A stretch of DNA of 64,000 nt from an uncultured Bacilli bacterium (GCA_944363935.1 CALVVT010000073.1:4226-68225); one strand, 5' to 3'; counted from the first letter of the stretch, positions 9,362 through 62,134 are shown. Program-made: numbers and translations. Notes: generated by a model from the letters alone, not told the origin.

Positions 9362-9525
9362 AAAAGAAAAACCACGGGCTATTTCTAGGAACGAAAAGCC
9401 GTGGTACCATCCTAATTAAACTTAATTATGATAACGGTTTTACCCGGAAATGTTTACATTTCTCTCGAAAATAGCTTCAGTTAATTTTATTTACTAGTTT
9501 TCACCGGCCACTAGCTCTCTATAAA
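9362..9525 (-). promoter_or_regulatory. T-box riboswitch leader (probable Ala specifier GCU) with terminator/antiterminator
   Basis: Minus strand reads AGAGAGCUAGUGG ... GAA-GCU-A ... then the T-box motif AAUUAGGAUGGUACCACGG (fwd 9399-9417). The terminator is CCACGGCUUUUCGUUCCUAGAAAUAGCCCGUGG (fwd 9372-9404) followed by U5CUUUU (fwd 9362-9371). Confidence 0.85.
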
Positions 9526-9537
9526 ATAAATATTAAC

Positions 9538-10719
9538 TTACTCTTTTTTCTCAACGATTTCTTTATCAGCAGTTATATCGTCTAAAGTATAATCTAAAAG
9601 TCCATACTTTTTATTGAAAAACTGAAAAATTGTTTTAATAGCTGCAAGGATTGGTGTTGATAAAAGCATTCCAATTATTCCGAAGAAATAACCAAACACA
9701 AGTAATCCTAGCATAATAACAATAGCATTTAATTTAGTCGTTTTTGACATAATAAATGGTTGTAATAAATTACCTTCTAAAAATTGAATAACAACTACGA
9801 TAATTAAAGTTAAAATTCCAATAGTCGGACTTTGCGTAAGACCAACAATTACTGCTGGAGCACCACCAATATAAGGTCCAATATAAGGAATAATATTAGT
9901 AAGTCCACAGAAAAATCCGAATAAAACAGGAGCTTCTAATCCAACTATCCAAAAACCAATCGATGTAAGTACAAATACGGCTCCACAGTCAATAAGGGCT
10001 CCAGTTACATAACTTCTTAAAGAATCATTAACTTCACTTGTAAGTTCAATTCCAGTTTCCCGATATTTAGCTGGTAATAATTTTAAAATACTTTTCATAC
10101 CTCTAAAATTAACCATTAATAAGAAACCGATGATTAAACCAATTGCAAAAGTTCCGATTCCAGAAAATAAACTTGAAACAAAATTAATTAAAGTATTGGG
10201 AAGTGCACTAGATATACCAACAGCAATGTCTTCGAATTTATCAAAAAATTGATTTTTAAGTTCATTAGCATCGATATAATCTAAAGTTTTTAAATAATCA
10301 AATATATTTAAAAACCAACCTTTTATCGAATTAAATATATCTGGAGCAGCTTTAGCAAAATCCATTATTTGACCAGCTAATAAAGGAATTAAAGCTGACA
10401 TAACTAACGCTACAATTACAAATAAAATAATATAAGTAATAATAGTTCCAAATACTCTTTTAATATGTTTTTTTTCTAAAAATGAAACAAATGGTTCAAA
10501 AAGCCAAGCGACAACTAAACCAATAATTAAAGGGACTAATATTTTAATAATAGTTCCAATAAACTCTAAAATTTGGGTTTCTTTAAATAATCTTATAACA
10601 ATATAAATAACCAGAAAAGCCAAAAGTAAATAAATTACTTTTAATACTCTAGCCGATAAGCTTGCTACTTCGTTTATTTTTTTGGTATCAAGCCCATCTA
10701 ATTTATTTTTTTTAAACAT
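9538..10719 (-). CDS. AI-2E family transporter (PerM/UPF0118)
   Basis: 393 aa polytopic membrane protein with AI-2E-like topology and a conserved C-terminal half. Confidence 0.6.
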   Translation of the reverse strand: MFKKNKLDGLDTKKINEVASLSARVLKVIYLLLAFLVIYIVIRLFKETQILEFIGTIIKILVPLIIGLVVAWLFEPFVSFLEKKHIKRVFGTIITYIILFVIVALVMSALIPLLAGQIMDFAKAAPDIFNSIKGWFLNIFDYLKTLDYIDANELKNQFFDKFEDIAVGISSALPNTLINFVSSLFSGIGTFAIGLIIGFLLMVNFRGMKSILKLLPAKYRETGIELTSEVNDSLRSYVTGALIDCGAVFVLTSIGFWIVGLEAPVLFGFFCGLTNIIPYIGPYIGGAPAVIVGLTQSPTIGILTLIIVVVIQFLEGNLLQPFIMSKTTKLNAIVIMLGLLVFGYFFGIIGMLLSTPILAAIKTIFQFFNKKYGLLDYTLDDITADKEIVEKKE

Positions 10720-19854: not shown

Positions 19855-20250
19855 CTATGATAACTGGTATGGATTATTTTGACTCCCATTACCTCCAGTT
19901 ATTTTAACCGCTTCATTATTACTATTAGTAATACCAATAGTTTCTAATTTCGCATCAAATGTTCCTTTATTTTCGACAATAATACTATATTCTACATAAT
20001 CTCCTTTTTCATATAAATTAGCTTCTAAACTTGCTGATAAATCATTATAAGTGTTTTTAACATTTTCTCCCGTTCCATTTGTATCAGTTACGTCGGCACT
20101 TATTATTTTAATATCCCAAGTACTACTAATATCAGTTGTCCCCGTAATATTAATACTTGTTTTAAAAGCCGCATAGCCTATCCCCATTAAACATAAAATG
20201 CATATTAAAATAAATATAACAATTTTATTTCTTCTTTTTTCCCTATACAT
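19855..20250 (-). CDS. Small secreted protein of the GIGYAAF family (TasA/SipW-cognate-like signal; C-terminal GNGSQNNPYQLS)
   Basis: 131 aa, MYREKRRNKIV..LMGIGYAAFKTSINITGTTDISSTWDIKI. Paralogous to 38317-38664, 32982-35899 and 60137-62094. Confidence 0.75.
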   Translation of the reverse strand: MYREKRRNKIVIFILICILCLMGIGYAAFKTSINITGTTDISSTWDIKIISADVTDTNGTGENVKNTYNDLSASLEANLYEKGDYVEYSIIVENKGTFDAKLETIGITNSNNEAVKITGGNGSQNNPYQLS

Positions 20251-30443: not shown

Positions 30444-31550
30444 TTAAAATTTATTTTTATATAAAAAATATTTAGTATTAGCGACCATAAAATAACCATT
30501 ATAACTAGCTAATACTTGTTTATAATTAGATTTTTTTTGTTTTTTCAGTCGTTTTAATTTTCTTTTCACTCGTTTTTTAGTTTGATTATTAAGTAAAATT
30601 AATAATTTTTTTTCTTTAAGTTTAAACTTATATCCTAAAAAATTTACCCCTTTATTTAAATCATATATTTGGGTTTTTTTATTTAAAGATAACCCTAATT
30701 TTTGAACCTTTCGATTAATCTCTACTAAACACTCTTTTAAAAATTCTTTATTATGATGAATTAAAATAAAGTCATCCATATATCTTATATAATATTTAAT
30801 TTGTAATTTTTCCTTAATAAAATGGTCTAGTTCATTTAAATAATAAATGGCTAAAATTTGACTCGTTTCATTACCAATTGGCAACCCTTTACCTTTTTTA
30901 TATCTAGGCAAATAATTTAGTTCTTGAAACTTACAAAAAATATCTGGGATGCTTTTCTGTCTTAATTTTTCTTTTTCTTTAGCTATTAAATTATCAATCT
31001 GATTATTAATATATTTAGCGTCAGTACTGTCGATAATATTTTTTAAAACATCAATTATTTCAAAATCAGGAATATCTTTAATTAATTTTTGTAATAAAAT
31101 TTCATGATTAATATTATAAAAATACTTACTAATATCACATTTTAAAACGTATATTTGATCATAATTTTGTTTTAATTTATTAATATATTTTTTTATATAA
31201 TAAATACCTGCTTTAGTACCTTTACCACTTCTAGTAGCAACATTTGTTTCCACTAATTTAGGAATTAAATAAGGAATTAAAACATATTTACTGATCAAAT
31301 GATTAACTATTTTATCTAAAATTCTTTCACTCATAACTATTCGGTATTTCGGTTCAGATATTAAAAATAAACTATATTGTCCGTGAGTATAAGTTCGAGA
31401 CTTTAATAAGTACAAAATTTTAGTTATATTAGAAGAAAAAGCCAGTTCAAATCTAACTAACTTTTGCTGATGACAGGTATTTAAACGAATTTTATAATAA
31501 ATTTTCAGTATTTTATCTATTGAAAGAAGATTATCATAAGTTATTTTCAT
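30444..31550 (-). CDS. Diversity-generating retroelement reverse transcriptase
   Basis: 368 aa RT domain. Motifs: EPKYRIVMSERILDKIVNHLI, the DGR-specific GLPIGNETSQILAIYYLNELD (I/LGxxxSQ in place of the group II QG) and YIRYMDDFIL (YxDD). There is no maturase or endonuclease domain. Confidence 0.9.
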   Translation of the reverse strand: MKITYDNLLSIDKILKIYYKIRLNTCHQQKLVRFELAFSSNITKILYLLKSRTYTHGQYSLFLISEPKYRIVMSERILDKIVNHLISKYVLIPYLIPKLVETNVATRSGKGTKAGIYYIKKYINKLKQNYDQIYVLKCDISKYFYNINHEILLQKLIKDIPDFEIIDVLKNIIDSTDAKYINNQIDNLIAKEKEKLRQKSIPDIFCKFQELNYLPRYKKGKGLPIGNETSQILAIYYLNELDHFIKEKLQIKYYIRYMDDFILIHHNKEFLKECLVEINRKVQKLGLSLNKKTQIYDLNKGVNFLGYKFKLKEKKLLILLNNQTKKRVKRKLKRLKKQKKSNYKQVLASYNGYFMVANTKYFLYKNKF

Positions 31551-32182
31551 TAACTTTTAATACTTTCTAAAACATATTTATCGTTAATTTTTTTATAATT
31601 ATAAGTTTTTAAAGTTCCATTATCTAATATGTTATTTAAATTATCTTTATTATATTCACCGATATCATTATTATCTAAATTATAAACATTATTATCTTTT
31701 ATATAAGCAATTTTTACATTTAATTCTAATTTATTATTATCATTAGTATAACCATATAATTTAGACACATATTTATTTTCACAAGAATACTTTTCTCTAG
31801 TAATAACGTCATTATCTAAATTATAAATATAACCATTATAAACATAATTTTGAACATTTGGCGCTTTAACATCACCAAGGATTTTTTTAGTACTTGTTTG
31901 ATAATCTTTTAAAGAAATTTTATCTTTTAATAAATTATCCTTATTCATTTGACCAAAAATTAAATCTAAAAGACTTTTATCTTCTAATTTATCGACATTT
32001 CCATCATTAATAACCGAGCATTCATTAACAGCAATCGCATCATACAAATCTTCAGCAACCTCGTGTTTTACTAAATTGCTAAAAGTTTGCGCTAGTTCTT
32101 TATTTTTTACTATCAATATTAATACTGTAATTAACACTATAATAATCAATAAAATAATAATTATTACTTTTTTATTCTTCAT
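31550..32182 (-). CDS. Membrane-anchored hypothetical protein encoded between avd and the RT
   Basis: 210 aa with an N-terminal TM and an Asn/Asp/Tyr-rich ectodomain. It is translationally coupled to avd (11-nt overlap) and to the RT (shared nucleotide). Confidence 0.5.
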   Translation of the reverse strand: MKNKKVIIIILLIIIVLITVLILIVKNKELAQTFSNLVKHEVAEDLYDAIAVNECSVINDGNVDKLEDKSLLDLIFGQMNKDNLLKDKISLKDYQTSTKKILGDVKAPNVQNYVYNGYIYNLDNDVITREKYSCENKYVSKLYGYTNDNNKLELNVKIAYIKDNNVYNLDNNDIGEYNKDNLNNILDNGTLKTYNYKKINDKYVLESIKS

Positions 32183-32525
32183 TACTAGTCTCCCTCTTTC
32201 TTAAACCATTAATCATTTTTCTTATTTCAATTAAAAATCTACCAATAACTGTAAACTGGTGATAACTTATTATTTTTTTATCCAATGAAACTTTTGTATA
32301 AAAGTCAAGCATCGAAAGTTCTACTGATAAATCTTTTAAATATTTATCTTTAATTCGTATACTAGTATTAATGTTATAAGCAAAAATGTTTTTAATTAAA
32401 GAATAACATGTTTTTTCAATATTGTTTTTTAATACAATTTCTTTTTTAGGATAATTAATAAGTAATTTATTAATATAATTAATTGTTTTATAAGAATTAT
32501 TTAAAATTTTAAAATTATAATTCAT
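32172..32525 (-). CDS. avd: Accessory variability determinant (Avd-like four-helix-bundle protein)
   Basis: About 118 aa starting at MNYNFKILNN with RBS GGAGA (the ORF track extends it to 32558). The size, basic composition and position between TR and RT match DGR Avd. Confidence 0.65.
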   Translation of the reverse strand: MNYNFKILNNSYKTINYINKLLINYPKKEIVLKNNIEKTCYSLIKNIFAYNINTSIRIKDKYLKDLSVELSMLDFYTKVSLDKKIISYHQFTVIGRFLIEIRKMINGLRKRETSNEE

Positions 32526-32767
32526 TTTTTCTCCTTCAATAAGTGTGGCTGGAGACAAAAAGTCTCCACCACTAATATAGCGATAGTTATATAAATACTT
32601 TAATAGTCATATAACGTCTATATTATCTTTTTAGGCTTTAATCCAAGGAATTAACCTTGTTTCCAATCTAAATTAGATTATTGCTTTCGCAACTACTTCC
32701 TCTGGTTATGAGCCGTAGCCAAATAACATCACGGTTCATTAGTAAATAATCACTAATTGTAGTAGGA

Positions 32768-32877
32768 AATTGGGCGGACGCCGTTGCTATTCCAAGTATT
32801 AGTGTTAGTGAGCTCGCCCGTGGCAGTCACGTACATCTCATTAGCATTGAACCAATTGTTGAAGTTCGACGGCGACA
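32768..32877 (-). repeat. DGR template repeat (TR)
   Basis: 110 bp, 95/110 identical to the VR. On the coding (minus) strand it encodes SPSNFNNWFNANEMYVTATGELTNTNTWNSNGVRPI, rich in AAC/AAT codons, and ends in GGCGTCCGCCCAATT. Confidence 0.92.
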
Positions 32878-32919
32878 AAACTGTACAAACTTATAAGGTT
32901 AATCCCTGTATGCGACGTT

Positions 32920-32949
32920 GGGCCAAAAATGAAGAGTCATTTTTGGCCC
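32920..32949 (-). promoter_or_regulatory. Perfect 13-bp stem / 4-nt loop hairpin between the target gene stop and the TR
   Basis: GGGCCAAAAATGA-agag-TCATTTTTGGCCC with no U-tract. A second 11-bp hairpin overlaps the stop codon at 32973-32999. Confidence 0.7.
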
Positions 32950-32981
32950 ATCTGCTCGCTATTTTGTTTTCGTAGTTGTTT

Positions 32982-35899
32982 CTACGAAACAACAAATGGG
33001 TCTTCAATTGTTCCGCTTCCAGTTACTGTTAGATTTTCAGAATTTAGATTGATAACTGGGCGGACGCCGCGGCTATCCCAAGTACCAGTGAAAGTGAGCT
33101 CGCCCGTGGCAGCCACGTACAGCTCATAAGCATAGAACCAATTGCTGAAGAACGACGGCGACATGGTCCAGTATGTAGTTCCCGTATATAAATAATATAA
33201 AGAATTTACTGATCCATTTATTCCACCAGCCATATTTACTTCGTCAGCAGTGATTAAACCAACTGAATAATTTAATTTCTTATTTCCTCTATTTACACTA
33301 AAACTATCGTTTTCTTCACACATTAAGGTTGGTCCAAGTTTTCCTTGAGAGGCCCAATTCAAAAATCTTTCATATCCATATATTGTTGGATTTATTCCAT
33401 ACCCTAAATTATTATAAGTTCCACTATTTTTAGAAGATTTATTTCGGTTATTACAGAATACTGCATCTTTACTTATTTTATCATTAACACTTGTTAAATT
33501 ACTTTGATACCAACTATCTAGATAATCTTTCATAGTACTATCATTTACATTACTATGTGCTTCTTCCAAACTTGTCGTTCCATAAGCTTTTGCTTTTACT
33601 GTCATTGAAGTACTACTATTATATTTTGTTGTATAAAATAGTCTTTGACATGAAGCTGAAGCCGAAGTACTAAAACAGGTATAATATCCTACTTCATTAT
33701 TTGAAAGGGTTCCTGTATGTAAATCTCCTGATAATTTATAACCTCTACTGTTTTTATCAAAGGTATAACTTGTTCCAAAATAATATTTCGCACTGCTTGA
33801 AAGACTTGTATAAACAAACGTCATATCACCACTATCTGTTTCCACAAAATTATTAGCGTTTCCATACATATATCCTACATAAGTATTGTCATTGGTATAT
33901 GAATTAAAAGCACTTGTTCCTACCTGTCTATTACTACTTGCTTCACCATTGGTATAAGGTGTGGTTCCATCATATATCATTCTTATACTTCCATCACCAT
34001 TTACTCTGATTATTCTCCAGTACATATTATTAAATTTTACATAGTTTCCCCCAACACTTCCGCGGTAATAATATGTCGTTCCATCATTATCACTTCCAGC
34101 ATACATTCCAACTCCAGTTGTATCATAACTAGCGACTGACTGGGTATAATCATATTTTGTCATATTATAAGTTATCTGACCAGTTGAACTATTTGTACTT
34201 GTCGTTACATTAGTTATTTTGTATAAAGTCGTACAAGAAACATTTGTAGTTAAACAAGTATAATAATCTCCACTACTATAATCTATGCTTGATGGATCTT
34301 TTAAACTATAGCCTGTTAAAGTATATATTCCTGTTGTTTTATTAAAAGTATAGCCTGTTCCAATATTATCATAATATATATGACTATGAACCGTTGTATT
34401 ACTTGCATGAACTTCATTATATGAAGCACTTGGACTTGTAACCATAAAGTTTGGATTACCTTTACCTTCTATCTCTTGTTTAGCTAGTTCTATATTACTT
34501 TCTTTAGCTTCACTGGCTATTATACAATCTCCAAAATTATCTATATCATTATGTTCACAAAATGCTGCATGTCTTATTGTTGTTGTTTTGGCCATCGTTT
34601 CTGATATATTTCCAGCTTTATCTTTTACATATACTGTTACTAAATAATCGCCTTCTTCAAGAGTAGTAAATGTATAGTTTGGATTACTAGTTTCAACATA
34701 ACTTTTACCCCCATCTTTACTATAATAGTATGTAGATACTCCGCTTTCTTTATCATTTGCATCTACTTCAATAGTCATTGTGTCATCGTCTGGAGTTACT
34801 ATTACATTTGTTACTTCTGGAATATTACTATCAACATTATAATTATCTGTACATTTAATTTCTTCATTTCCTACTACATCTACGGCTTTTACACAGACTT
34901 TTTGACTATCTTTATTACTAGTTATTTGAACCATCCCTTTATTATCTGTAAGTTCTAGTTCTTTATCTGGAGTACAATCACTATTTCCTATACAGTATAA
35001 AGCTTTAGCTACTTTATCATTATCACTAACTTCAACATTTATATCAAGTCCCTTATACCAATTATTTTCACCTTTTATATTATCTCCCATTACTAATAAT
35101 ACTTTTGGTTTCGTTTTATCTAAAGTTTTAAATTTTGTACTAGAAAATACTACTTCTCCTTCTTCGTTTTCAGCTTTAACATAAAGCATATATTCTGTAT
35201 TTGGTTTAAGATTATGAATAGTATAACTATTATTATTTGTCTCATACCATTTATCATTATCTAATGAAAAATAGTATTTAATAGCATTTTCGGCGGTTAT
35301 TTTACTTGTTACACTTGTTTCATTTGGATTTACTTCTAAATCACTTATTTTAAATCCTTCTACTTCTATACTATCTGCATCTGAAAAATTAGTACTATTT
35401 CCTTTTTGAACATACTCTAATACTGTAGAAAAACTAAACTTTGTTTGTTCAGGTTGACTAGTTATATCTTCATTATATTTTAAAATAACATTAAACTTTT
35501 TTTCTGTTTCCGATAACAATTCTTCTTTAGCGGTTATCCCTTCTACCGAATATATAAGAACGTTTTGTTCTGGCGCATTTATTTTAATACTATCTAAAAC
35601 AGCATCTAAAGTTCCTTTATTTTCAACCGTTATTTCATAAGTTATACTATCTCCTGGCGCATAAAAGTTAGCTGTCATATTAGCCGTTAAATCATTCCAA
35701 TTTGGCTCTGTAGCATTTTCAGCATTGCCTTCGGTCTTTATAGTTTCAACATTTGTTATTCTAATATCCCAAATACTTGTTATATTACTGGTACCGTTAA
35801 TATTTAGTTTACTACTAAAAGCGGCATACCCTATTCCCATTAACATTAATAAACAGCATAAACCTAATATAACTACGTTGTTCTTTTTTCGTCTATGCA
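32982..35899 (-). CDS. DGR target: large secreted surface protein of the GIGYAAF family with repeated beta-rich modules and a C-terminal VR-bearing (C-type-lectin-like) domain
   Basis: About 972 aa from MHRRKKNNVVILGL (RBS AAGGAGG; the ORF track starts 34 nt upstream at 35933). N-terminus LMGIGYAAFSSKLNINGTSNITSIWDIRITN. The VR is 24-60 residues from the C-terminus. Confidence 0.85.
33055..33164 (-). repeat. DGR variable repeat (VR) at the 3' end of the target gene
   Basis: Encodes SPSFFSNWFYAYELYVAATGELTFTGTWDSRGVRPV. The 15 substitutions relative to the TR are all at TR coding-strand adenines (for example AAC to TTC, AGC or CGC, and AAT to TAT, GGT or GAT). It ends in the GC-rich GGCGTCCGCCCAGTT. 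Confidence 0.92.
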
Positions 35900-36002
35900 T
35901 AACATACCTCCTTATTTTATTTAAGTATAGCACATTTGTTGGGGGTAATGCAAGTATCTTATTTAGAAAAATATTATTTTATAAAATTATGGTGGTGGTA
36001 CT

Positions 36003-36212
36003 ATGATAAAAATAAATATCGAAGAACTTCTTAAAGAAAATGGAAAAAGTAAATATTGGCTTCGCCAAAAGATGAACATAACTTCCAGAAACCTTAATAA
36101 AATTATTAGAGGTGAAACTAATTCTATTTCTTTCAAATATATTGAAGAATTTTGTTACTACTTAAACTGTACTCCAGGAGATTTAATAACTATTGAAAAA
36201 GACAGGCCCTAG
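36003..36212 (+). CDS. XRE/Cro-type HTH regulator (69 aa), divergent from the DGR target gene
   Basis: KYWLRQKMNITSRNLNKIIRGET helix-turn-helix. Confidence 0.7.
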   Translation: MIKINIEELLKENGKSKYWLRQKMNITSRNLNKIIRGETNSISFKYIEEFCYYLNCTPGDLITIEKDRP

Positions 36213-38316: not shown

Positions 38317-38664
38317 TCAATTTTGTAATTGATAAGCATTATTTTCTGAACCATCACCTGATATAATTTGTACTTCTGGAGATAATGTTACTGTATATAA
38401 GGCATAATCTCCGGGACTTACTAAATTAGTACTAAATGATGCTGTAAGTCCATTCTCATTATCATAACTTGGTTCTACTGCATTAGTTGCTTTTCCATGT
38501 AAGTTACTTTCGATATTAGTTATTCTTATATCCCAGTTACTACTTATATTACTAGTACCAGTAATATTAAGCATACTACTAAAAGCGGCATACCCTATCC
38601 CCATTAATAATAATATTGAACATAATCCTAGTATAATTAAATTATTTTTCTTTCTCCTATTCAT
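38317..38664 (-). CDS. Small secreted GIGYAAF-family protein (about 115 aa)
   Basis: MNRRKKNNLIILGLCSILLLMGIGYAAFSSMLNITGTSNISSNWDIRITNIE...SGDGSENNAYQLQN. The start was chosen at the M with an RBS (the track start 38727 is an extension). Confidence 0.75.
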   Translation of the reverse strand: MNRRKKNNLIILGLCSILLLMGIGYAAFSSMLNITGTSNISSNWDIRITNIESNLHGKATNAVEPSYDNENGLTASFSTNLVSPGDYALYTVTLSPEVQIISGDGSENNAYQLQN

Positions 38665-38881
38665 TTTGATTTTCCTTCCCGTCATTATAATAATAACAAG
38701 TATTTTTATACTTCCTATTATTACCATTTATTTAATTACTATACATTTACTTACACTATAACATTTTATATTACTTTTTGTAACATAAAATGTATTATAT
38801 TTTTAATGTAAAATTTACTCCCCTTAATTTTAAAGGAATTATATAGTGTAAAGTTGACAGAAAAAAAGATAAGCATTTAAC

Positions 38882-42791: not shown

Positions 42792-42985
42792 TAACAAAAA
42801 AGTATTATGAGTATAAGGACGAATAAATCGTGGTACCACCTTACTTTCATAATACTATGATTATCTCAAAAGCTTAACGTGCTTTACCCGTCATATACTT
42901 ATCATATATGCTGCTCATAAGTAAGTTCATAGCCTTTCTTTAAAAGTTTCCACCAACCACTTTCTCTCTATAAAAGAAATAACTA
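42792..42985 (-). promoter_or_regulatory. T-box riboswitch leader (probable Leu specifier CUU)
   Basis: Minus strand reads AGAGAGAAAGUGG ... AUGAA-CUU-A ... then the T-box motif AAGUAAGGUGGUACCACG (fwd 42829-42846). The terminator stem is AGUAUUAUGA/UCAUAAUACU (fwd 42801-42856) followed by UUUUUUG. Confidence 0.85.
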
Positions 42986-43048
42986 TTACTACTCTTAATC
43001 CTCGCTTTGCTTATTTAATTATAGTATAAAATTAAAGGTTAATCAAGG

Positions 43049-60136: not shown

Positions 60137-62094
60137 TTATAGACTTAACTGGTACGGACTTGAACTTGAACCATTCCCCGAAGTTATTTTGACATTTGGG
60201 GATAAGGTTGCTACAGGGCGGACGCCGAATGAAAAACCGCTACTTCCAGTAGTTGACATATTTCCTTTAGAAGTTATATAAATTGCAAAGGACACATATG
60301 GGTTTATTGTCCAATAATTTGTGCTATTAAATAAATAGTTTGTTAAATTACATTCATCATAATTATTACGTAACAAATTATTATTACTACATTTTTCAGT
60401 ATTAGAATTTGCCCGTAAATAATCACTAAAATTAATTAGTCCTACCTTTCCTTCCCATATATCACTATTTTCAATTGGAATAATTTCTTTTAATTCATAA
60501 TTAAACATCCCATTTTCATTTCCTATACCATAACCGTAATTAATTATTTGGTTTTGTGATAACAAGGTTAATTCATTACTATAATATTCTGTATTTAAAT
60601 ATGTATTTAATGTTGCTGTCCTCCATCTATCAGAATCCGCTTCATTCCATACCATATTATTAATAATATCTTTTTTTACTATTTTTATAGTGTTATCATT
60701 TGTATTAATTCGCACTATTCTCCATAGCTCATCATTAAAATTAATATAATTGTTTGGATTAGTTCCCCGATATGTATACACATTCTCTTCATATGAGTCT
60801 TTATATAACCCATCTCCACTTGTCACTAGTTGGAGACTATCAATAAATTCTTCCACTGTTTGTGGTATTGTTATATTATATGATGCACTTTCCATATTAA
60901 CACCATCACTTACTCTGGCTACTAATGTACCACTTTCCGTAAATTCTACTTCTTGATTTTGAGTTGCTGCAGTCCATGTACCATTATCTTTTTGATACTC
61001 GTATGTTAATCCTTCTCCTTCTGGATATGTTATAGTAACAGTTTTTCCATTATCTGTTTCTTCTTCACTAAAGGTCGGTACATTTAATTCTTTCGTACTT
61101 ACATTATATTCTTCACTTTCTACTTGTAGGTTATCTCTATTGGTTACTCTTACTTTTATTTTATGACTTGTATTTTGAGTAAGTCCTGTAAAGGTATATG
61201 TATTACTATCACCTGTTATATATTCCTCATTATCTATTTTATATTCGTATTTTACTATTTCTCCATCTTCTTCTATAGCTGTAGTTACAACGGTTATAGA
61301 ACTCGTTGTACTACTGGTACTTACATTATTTATAACTGGAGGCGTTGTATCTATTTTTCTAAATATCGCATAAAGTGTTACATTATTACTTGGCATACTT
61401 AAACTTTCTAAACCTACTGTTGCTCCTTTATCCGTATTCCATCCCATAAATTCATAGCCTGCTTTAGTTGCTGTATATTCTAAATTAACATTACTTCCTT
61501 CGGCTACATAATCATTTATAGCATTTGTGCTTTCTCCGCCATTAGTACTATAATCATAAGTTACATAATAATCATTAGCTGGTAAAGGATTATCACTATC
61601 TTGAGCTACATCTATACTTATATCTAAATCGACACTTATATTTTCTTCGATACTTGTTACATCACTATTAAATTCTACTTTAACTTGTAACTCTTTTGTT
61701 TCTTTACCTTTGATTACATCTCCTTTAGTTAGTCCTGATAAAGTAAAGGTTATATACTTATTTTCTTTATAATAAGTATTTATTTTCTCTATTCTCGCAT
61801 CTACACTTCCTCTATTTTCTATAGTTACTGTATATAATGCATAATCTCCAGGTCTTTTTAAACCAGTACTAAATGATGCATATAGTCCATTAGTATTATC
61901 ATAACTTGGTTCTTCGATATCTTCAGCTCCATGTAACTCACTTTCTATATTAGTTATTCTAACATCCCAGGTACTTGTTATATTACTTGTTCCTGTTATA
62001 TTTAATTTACTACTAAAGGCTGCATATCCTATTCCCATTAATACTAATATAGAACATAGCCCTACTATAATTAAATTATTTTTTTAGTTCGCAT
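60137..62094 (-). pseudogene. GIGYAAF-family large surface protein; paralog of the DGR target. The signal-peptide region is frameshifted at an A7 tract, a candidate phase-variable switch
   Basis: ATG (rc 62092-62094) with RBS GGAGGA gives MRTKKII then a stop. One extra A in the A7 run (fwd T7, 62079-62085) would give MRTKKNNLIIVGLCSILVLMGIGYAAF..., in frame with the 633-aa ORF. The C-terminus has FGVRPV and GNGSSSSPYQLSL. Confidence 0.7.
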
Positions 62095-62134
62095 AAAGCG
62101 TCCTCCTACTTCCTATTATATTTTTTTATCTTAT

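Follow-up and report, generated by a model that had tools for sequence, protein, structure and literature searches.

The 64,000-nucleotide stretch of DNA analyzed here (the window; GCA_944363935.1 CALVVT010000073.1:4226-68225, from an uncultured Bacilli bacterium, 27% GC, coordinates given as window positions) very probably carries a chromosomal diversity-generating retroelement (DGR) that is active or was so very recently, in a lineage of low-GC gut Bacilli related to 'Mycoplasma sp. CAG:956' and to metagenome-assembled genomes (MAGs) of the Candidatus Faecimonas type. Four intact open reading frames (ORFs), all on the minus strand, and one repeat pair, consisting of a template repeat (TR) and a variable repeat (VR), were found between 30444 and 35933. 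The preliminary description had read this region as a complete DGR, and that reading stood as a whole: the reverse transcriptase (RT) appeared to be of DGR type, an Avd protein was present, the TR/VR mismatches were confined to TR adenines, and the VR lay within a predicted C-type-lectin-like domain. The features were as follows.

30444-31550, minus strand: RT, 368 aa, intact
31550-32182, minus strand: nested gene ('HYP') for a 210-aa bitopic membrane protein
32172-32525, minus strand: Avd, 117 aa from ATG 32525
32571-32767, minus strand: spacer RNA 3' of the TR, conserved and structured, the analogue of the 'Sp' region of Bordetella phage BPP-1
32647-32658, minus strand: downstream arm of a long-range duplex, AAGGUUAAUUCC, which brackets the TR and pairs with 32906-32895 over 12 bp
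32768-32877, minus strand: TR, intergenic, 110 nt
32895-32906, minus strand: upstream arm of the long-range duplex, GGGAUUAACCUU
32920-32949, minus strand: hairpin 5' of the TR, GGGCCAAAAAUGA-CUCUUC-AUUUUUGGCCC
32982-35900, minus strand: target gene, 972 aa from ATG 35900
33054-33163, minus strand: VR

First, the two repeats were compared. TR and VR aligned without gaps over 110 nt on the minus strand at an offset of 286. They differed at 15 of the 110 positions, and all 15 mismatches fell on TR adenines, of which the TR has 30 (hypergeometric P = 1.3e-10). The tabulation thus agreed with that of the preliminary description, in which the repeat pair was real but the VR coordinates (33055-33164) were 1 nt off, the correct ones being 33054-33163. 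Twelve codons were altered between TR and VR in the reading frame of the target, and 8 of these were AAY. Read in the VR frame, the TR had 9 AAY codons and 20 variable codons, adenine mutagenesis could yield no stop codon, and the theoretical diversity amounted to about 1.2e17 protein variants. The VR was located, as had been claimed, at the 3' end of the gene for a large protein, where it encodes aa 924-960 of a 983-aa ORF, and the TR was found 104 nt beyond the target stop codon, on the same strand as avd and RT and separated from avd by only about 240 nt. Both repeats formed GC islands (TR 49%, VR 57%, against 27% window-wide), and no further copy of the repeat was found within the 64-kb window. 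The GC-rich 3' end GGCGTCCGCCC was common to TR and VR and conserved across the clade of related elements described below; by analogy, it may be the counterpart of the GC-rich initiation of mutagenic homing (IMH) element of BPP-1.

The repeats were also compared between strains, using three conspecific metagenome contigs (L085, L086, and L087; n = 3; L-numbers denote related loci or contigs throughout) that were reached through the RT 90% cluster. Over 8,272 nt, contig L085 had 98.45% identity with the window. The TR in the three contigs was the same as that of the window apart from G58A. In contrast to this constancy, the VR of L085 differed from the window VR at 20 of 110 positions; 19 of these were TR-A sites, and the twentieth was position 58, at which the VR of L085 carries the A of its own TR. 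The VR of L087 differed from the window VR at 17 of 110 positions, all of them TR-A sites. Divergence between strains was therefore 15-18% in the VR in comparison with 1.55% in the flanks, and it is in the VR, at adenine-templated sites, that variation has built up against a constant TR. Divergence of this size confined to such sites, together with the copied TR base, is predicted by mutagenic homing but not by ordinary mutation or recombination. From these sequence comparisons, the DGR is apparently active or recently active. Four independent assemblies end at the target 3' end, and the conspecific contigs L085, L086, and L087 break inside or beside the target 3' end or the TR; breaks are to be expected at this place, assemblies being prone to break at polymorphic repeats.

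The RT matched Pfam RVT_1 (68 bits). In a PDB search, its best solved relative was 8ub7, a 328-aa 'Reverse transcriptase' (E 3.2e-27), which we take to be the Bordetella phage RT, bRT. Group II, retron, Cas-RT, and Drt3a RTs matched the window RT at E 1e-9 or weaker in the same search (retron RTs at about 5e-8), and 8ub7 outscored the group II, retron, or Drt RTs by 18 orders of magnitude. The motifs LPIGNETSQ (IGxxxSQ) and YMDD were present, and GLPIGNETSQ aligned with GIPIGSLTSQ of 8ub7. The window RT also conserves the residues matching F66, R74, D138, I181, G182, Q187, and YMDD of bRT, which are active-site residues or template or deoxynucleotide contacts according to a preprint on the bRT-Avd-RNA complex (10.1101/2023.10.23.563531). 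These data point to an RT of DGR type, as the preliminary description had proposed from the motifs. A tblastn search of phage records with the RT gave matches that included Bordetella phages and the gut phage nd12, a published DGR phage.

It could be argued instead that the repeat arose by ordinary duplication or gene conversion and that the RT belongs to a group II intron, a retron, or a defence system. The best NCBIfam matches of the RT would fit this, being to the group II RT/maturase model TIGR04416 (90 bits, cut-off 300) and to Drt3a (68.5 bits, cut-off 200), followed by Drt5 (24 bits, cut-off 550), all below threshold, and its PADLOC RT matches were many and generic. No match to a DGR-RT model was obtained in Pfam, NCBIfam, or PADLOC, libraries that are without such a model. 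However, a duplication does not account for mismatches found exclusively at TR adenines; 8ub7, taken as a DGR RT, was the best solved homolog by a wide margin; Rfam detected no group II intron RNA or retron msr/msd RNA in the window at the gathering threshold; an Avd gene adjoins the RT; and the same adenine-biased cassette was present in 39 related loci. We regard this explanation as scarcely credible, and the locus as a DGR.

The small basic ORF between RT and TR was confirmed as Avd-like. It matched the Pfam family PF22296 (bAvd-like) with 48.3 bits, above the cut-off of 40, and had a pI of 9.7. Its start at ATG 32525 (MNYNFKILN) is common to the related loci L001 and L007, and the ORF runs on upstream to TTG 32558. 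A sequence search of the PDB with Avd gave no match.

The target ORF extends upstream of ATG 35900 to GTG 35933, which gives the length of 983 aa. Its N-terminus is basic and hydrophobic, forming a signal or anchor, and is followed by an N-terminal beta domain, by fn3 and PKD/OmpL47-type Ig domains at aa ~190-450, and by a middle region with cysteines. The C-terminus was confidently modelled as an enlarged C-type-lectin-like domain that contains the VR (the preliminary description had proposed to look there for a C-type lectin or FGE-like fold), so that the VR is predicted to be displayed on a C-type-lectin-like fold. A gut IgA peptidase has a lectin-like N-terminal domain that the variable domain of the target resembles. 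By sequence, the C-terminal half of the target had no Pfam match (DUF6273 on the window protein, E > 1), and a profile of the target family had no match in the PDB. More than 4,600 homologs of this half were found, a few of which weakly match DUF6273. The lectin-like domain is preceded by a conserved module of about 190 residues, and this two-part module occurs twice, in tandem, in many homologs. DUF6273 has been described as a C-type-lectin-like domain of DGR targets, and its C-terminus is where the VR lies (PMC10743442, PMC11792537). The TasA/SipW-cognate-like signal of the preliminary description was not confirmed: the SipW-signal model gave no match at E <= 10 to either the first 44 or the first 169 aa, the BsaA model reached only 15.8 bits (cut-off 60) and did so within the domain after the signal region, and the TasA-type likeness of GIGYAAFSS in the N-terminus is one seen by eye only.

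Paralogs of the N-terminal signal and beta domain of the target were found elsewhere in the window, at 60137-62107, 38317-38727, and 19855-20250, all on the minus strand. The first contains a 633-aa ORF (60137-62038) that also has the conserved middle module and a shorter lectin-like C-terminus (...GVRPVATL) with no TR match, while the small ORFs at 38317-38727 and 19855-20250 have the N-terminal domain only. A second target-like gene of 452 aa was observed in the related locus L003 (L003:2222-3580), just upstream of the main DGR target; its lectin-like C-terminal region is asparagine-rich, TR-like, and apparently undiversified.

We analyzed the RNA flanking the TR by aligning the region 3' of the TR for 21 loci with a detected TR. 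The alignment showed invariant blocks and covarying stems, with compensatory changes in 12 of the 19 RNAalifold pairs. TR/VR homology stops at ...CCCAAUU, and the invariant UUCCUACUA (32768-32759) follows directly; then come hairpins 1 and 2, the invariant GAGGAAGUA (32702-32694), hairpins 3 and 4, the invariant UGGAAACAAG, and a variable block. The fourth hairpin is AAUCU/AGAUU, and GGAAAC lies after the hairpins at 32664-32659. The variable block has its complement in a segment lying 20-85 nt upstream of the TR. For the window, this pairing is the duplex of 12 bp between GGGAUUAACCUU (32906-32895) and AAGGUUAAUUCC (32658-32647), and other loci keep the pairing with different sequences. An alignment-free permutation test of cognate against non-cognate upstream/downstream pairs in 25 distinct loci placed the cognate duplex energy first in 15 loci and among the top three in 21 (p <= 5e-5), with a mean of -14.4 kcal/mol for cognate pairs versus -8.6 kcal/mol. 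Handa et al. inferred a 'cPRT Stop duplex' in 207 Avd-containing DGRs (10.1101/2023.10.23.563531), and the 12-bp long-range duplex matches this class. Just 5' of the upstream arm, the hairpin at 32949-32920 has a conserved loop and a covarying stem with no U-tract after it, and it was found in the window and in L001, L002, L003, L006, L007, L024, L027, L032, L045, and L073. UUCCU beside the TR end is complementary to AGGAA within the invariant GAGGAAGUA and is possibly a candidate cis-priming site, like the TR:Sp priming duplex of BPP-1. No Rfam family covers the TR-flanking RNA, the only Rfam matches in the window being two T-box leaders.

A mechanism may be proposed on this basis. The transcript would span the upstream hairpin, the TR, and the spacer of about 200 nt, and in the folded RNA the 12-bp duplex of sequences 5' and 3' of the TR would bracket the template. 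An RT-Avd complex would bind the TR RNA and make cDNA with misincorporation opposite adenines, and this cDNA would take the place of the VR, at the 3' end of the target gene. In this way as many as 20 codons could be re-randomised (about 1e17 variants) on the lectin-like tip of a 972-aa secreted or membrane-anchored protein. Cis-priming from the spacer, the role of Avd, and the homing step are inferred by analogy with BPP-1 biochemistry.

Next, related loci were examined. A scan of one genome per species gave 410 RT relatives, and the best 80 of the 410 loci were fetched and compared. These 80 were 44-71% identical to the window RT and came nearly all from animal or human gut MAGs (uncultured Bacilli, Tenericutes, Mycoplasma sp. 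CAG:956, Candidatus Faecimonas, and Candidatus Onthousia). Viral collections contained RT relatives at <=35% identity only, and the RT clade is for this reason considered a cellular lineage. In about 74 of the 80 loci the gene immediately upstream of the RT encoded an Avd homolog, and adenine-biased TR/VR pairs were detected in 39. The gene order of BPP-1 is mtd-avd-TR-brt. The preliminary description had noted correctly that the order target(VR)-TR-avd-RT differs from it; however, this order is no oddity but the norm of the clade, being found, as VR-TR-(...)-avd-RT, in 37 of the 39 loci in which a TR was detectable. Several genomes had two DGR RTs of the same clade, namely L016/L027 (CAJLEF010000003.1), L015/L055 (CAKOHG010000002.1), L013/L062 (Mycoplasma sp. 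CAG:956), and L002/L052 (MAG E08__bin338), and the RT pairs on CAJLEF010000003.1 and CAKOHG010000002.1 were about 18-22 kb apart. No description of this clade as such was found in the literature searched, nor was any literature link between DGRs and 'RF39'.

A MutS-domain-I gene (~131-137 aa) was present in 43 of the 80 related loci, either between spacer and avd or just after the RT; that of L001 scored 29.5 bits against Pfam MutS_I (cut-off 20.6). Such ORFs were located in three relatives as follows.

L001:6623-7018: MutS-like ORF
L007:6636-7040: MutS-like ORF
L003:9124-9537: MutS-like ORF

The MutS-like accessory is the 'MSL' of Architecture D of Wu et al. 2018 (PMC5758913). No MSL gene was detected in the window by tblastn with the L001 and L003 MSL proteins (best E 0.15), and the conspecific contigs were also without it. 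Since the VR has diversified without MSL, this protein must be dispensable or be supplied from elsewhere in the genome.

Several points weigh against an active DGR as set out above. What the strain comparison attests is that the VR has diversified since the strains had a recent common ancestor; it does not show that the element is still at work in this isolate. MSL is absent from the window though present in the closest relatives, and its absence could reduce or alter activity. The NCBIfam equivalog model DivGenRetAVD gave the Avd protein 51.7 bits, below the cut-off of 80, and the UUCCU/AGGAA pairing is beyond a covariation test because both strands are invariant. The element might accordingly be read as a relic, with its parts present but homing at an end and with the TR/VR pattern and the strain differences recording past activity only. 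The missing MutS-like gene of the closest relatives would fit a relic, and the conspecific contigs number only three. However, all ORFs are intact, with their translationally coupled junctions preserved, the RNA elements show full conservation, the VRs are 15-18% divergent between strains with 1.55% divergence in the flanks, a point change in a TR has been copied into the VR of the same strain, and the breaks of four independent assemblies at the target 3' end are expected of a polymorphic repeat. A relic is therefore very improbable, and a DGR that is active, or was so very recently, remains our reading of the locus.

The extra membrane protein that the preliminary description had placed inside the avd-RT operon is present. 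However, nested 'X' ORFs were already included among the 48 cassette architectures of a published survey (PMC5758913). At its start the 210-aa gene shares 11 nt with the avd stop, and at its stop it shares 1 nt with the RT start. The protein is extracytoplasmic and membrane-anchored, with an N-terminal transmembrane helix and an NTF2/VirB8/cystatin-like domain, the fold match being at modest Z. The gene was found between avd and RT only in the closest relatives (the window, the three conspecific contigs, L001, L002, L003, L007, and L008), in which its position and its overlapping start and stop codons are kept across RT divergence down to 60%. Homologs of the protein occur elsewhere, in L168-L172 beside gap/pgk and in L081 with a LysM gene on one side and a dehydrogenase gene on the other; the break in the L168-L171 assemblies is upstream of the short homolog of the membrane protein, at a distance of about 200 nt. 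At L083:3084-6438 (GCA_944358665.1, the same MAG as L001), a 976-aa protein shares 72% identity with the target along its entire length, and a 145-aa homolog of the 210-aa protein follows it directly and overlaps it. No RT, avd, or TR was found near this paralog. The possibility that it is a remote target of the L001 TR was rejected, the mismatches being 17 at A and 15 at non-A sites, and in its VR-like stretch the differences from the L001 TR, as from that of the window, include non-adenine sites. The L083 paralog is thus an orphan or former target, or is served by a TR that was not seen. That short homologs of the 210-aa protein always come after target-like genes was also rejected, given their place beside gap/pgk in L168-L172.

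Because its homologs occur in these other contexts (L083, L168-L172, and L081), the 210-aa gene is most likely a lineage-specific passenger or a surface-protein partner and not part of the reverse-transcription machinery. It might alternatively be a true functional accessory of this DGR subclade, such as a membrane dock or partner of the diversified surface protein that is co-expressed with avd and RT. Its retention between avd and RT, with overlaps, in every subclade member is consistent with this, as is the short homolog overlapping the target-like gene of L083 with no RT nearby. In contrast, other homologs have unrelated housekeeping genes as neighbours, some 74 of the 80 related DGRs do without the gene, the fold is a generic NTF2/VirB8-like scaffold, and nested non-conserved ORFs are frequent in DGR cassettes (PMC5758913); we consider an accessory role unlikely, with perhaps a minority chance of being right. 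More speculative still is the suggestion that the operon avd-[NTF2-like membrane protein]-RT reflects functional coupling, in which the small bitopic protein would dock the hypervariable lectin-tipped protein at the membrane or be its partner. If this were true, a DGR of genome-reduced, probably host- or partner-dependent gut Bacilli would express its diversification machinery together with a component dedicated to display, and would manage this without the MutS-like accessory of its relatives; the pair of target and small membrane protein in L083 would fit.

The locus belongs to a known kind of system and is unsurprising to a specialist. It resembles BPP-1 in the family of its RT (8ub7 being taken as bRT), the basic Avd, the TR-to-VR pattern specific to adenines, the position of the VR in a predicted fold of C-type-lectin type at the 3' end of a gene, and the TR within a structured RNA with a flank duplex. 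Unlike the phage-borne BPP-1 element, the window DGR is chromosomal. Its order target-TR-avd-X-RT puts the spacer RNA between TR and avd, whereas the BPP-1 spacer is between TR and RT; the upstream RNA element is an intergenic conserved hairpin, whereas that of BPP-1 is the 3' end of avd; and the target is a 972-aa multi-domain cell-surface protein, whereas that of BPP-1 is a tail-fibre tip. In comparison with the TvpA DGR of Treponema denticola there is no HRDC gene, and in comparison with LdtA of Legionella the target has no lipoprotein or Tat signal. The predicted C-type-lectin-like domain differs from both in being of an enlarged DUF6273/IgAse-NTD type, and there is one target only within 64 kb. 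As in MSL-containing DGRs (Architecture D), an MSL gene beside avd is common in the RT clade of the window, but the window and its conspecifics are without MSL and have a diversified VR nonetheless, the sole extra gene of the window being the membrane NTF2-like ORF between avd and RT. The scaffold motif ...YWT.SP...GVRPV is shared with DUF6273 targets (tentaclins of phages nd4/nd12; Faecalibacterium prophages), and homologs of the C-terminal domain in the target show weak matches to DUF6273, placed at the C-terminal end of DUF6273, to which published VRs have been mapped. Unlike the DUF6273 phage targets, the window domain ends a large cellular protein that itself has no Pfam DUF6273 match.

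To our knowledge, DGRs are the only natural system of targeted protein hypermutation in prokaryotes. Existing knowledge of how DGRs work is not changed by this locus, whose value is that of a tractable example with contrasts in MSL and nested genes. It is a clean, compact, apparently active chromosomal DGR in an uncultured-type, small-genome lineage of gut Bacilli, and its conserved TR-flanking RNA allows comparison with the ribonucleoprotein structure of BPP-1. MutS-like-containing and MutS-like-free elements form a natural contrast that could show whether the MutS-like and nested membrane genes matter. The locus could also help in asking which ligands such bacteria bind, given that about 1e17 variants of the receptor are possible.

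The neighbouring genes are chromosomal (FeoB, LeuRS, a transporter, and M23 peptidases), and no prophage signs were seen around the DGR. No exact-sequence records of the RT or the 210-aa protein were found. A divergent helix-turn-helix (HTH) gene lies upstream of the target.

36003-36212, plus strand: HTH gene, Cro/C1-type (Pfam HTH_26, E 8e-15)

The FeoB-HTH-target side of the window is syntenic with L001, in which a near-identical copy of the HTH gene has the same position, and the target paralog of L083 has a different HTH gene upstream. The HTH protein is a possible regulator of the DGR, its link to the element being inferred only. A promoter scan for sigma-70 was uninformative in DNA of 27% GC (48 sites versus 42 expected). 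One weak terminator-like site was found between spacer and avd (32586-32566). The two T-box leaders in the window are at 42812-43011 and 9384-9563, both on the minus strand (Rfam RF00230, 124.6 and 114.2 bits, respectively).

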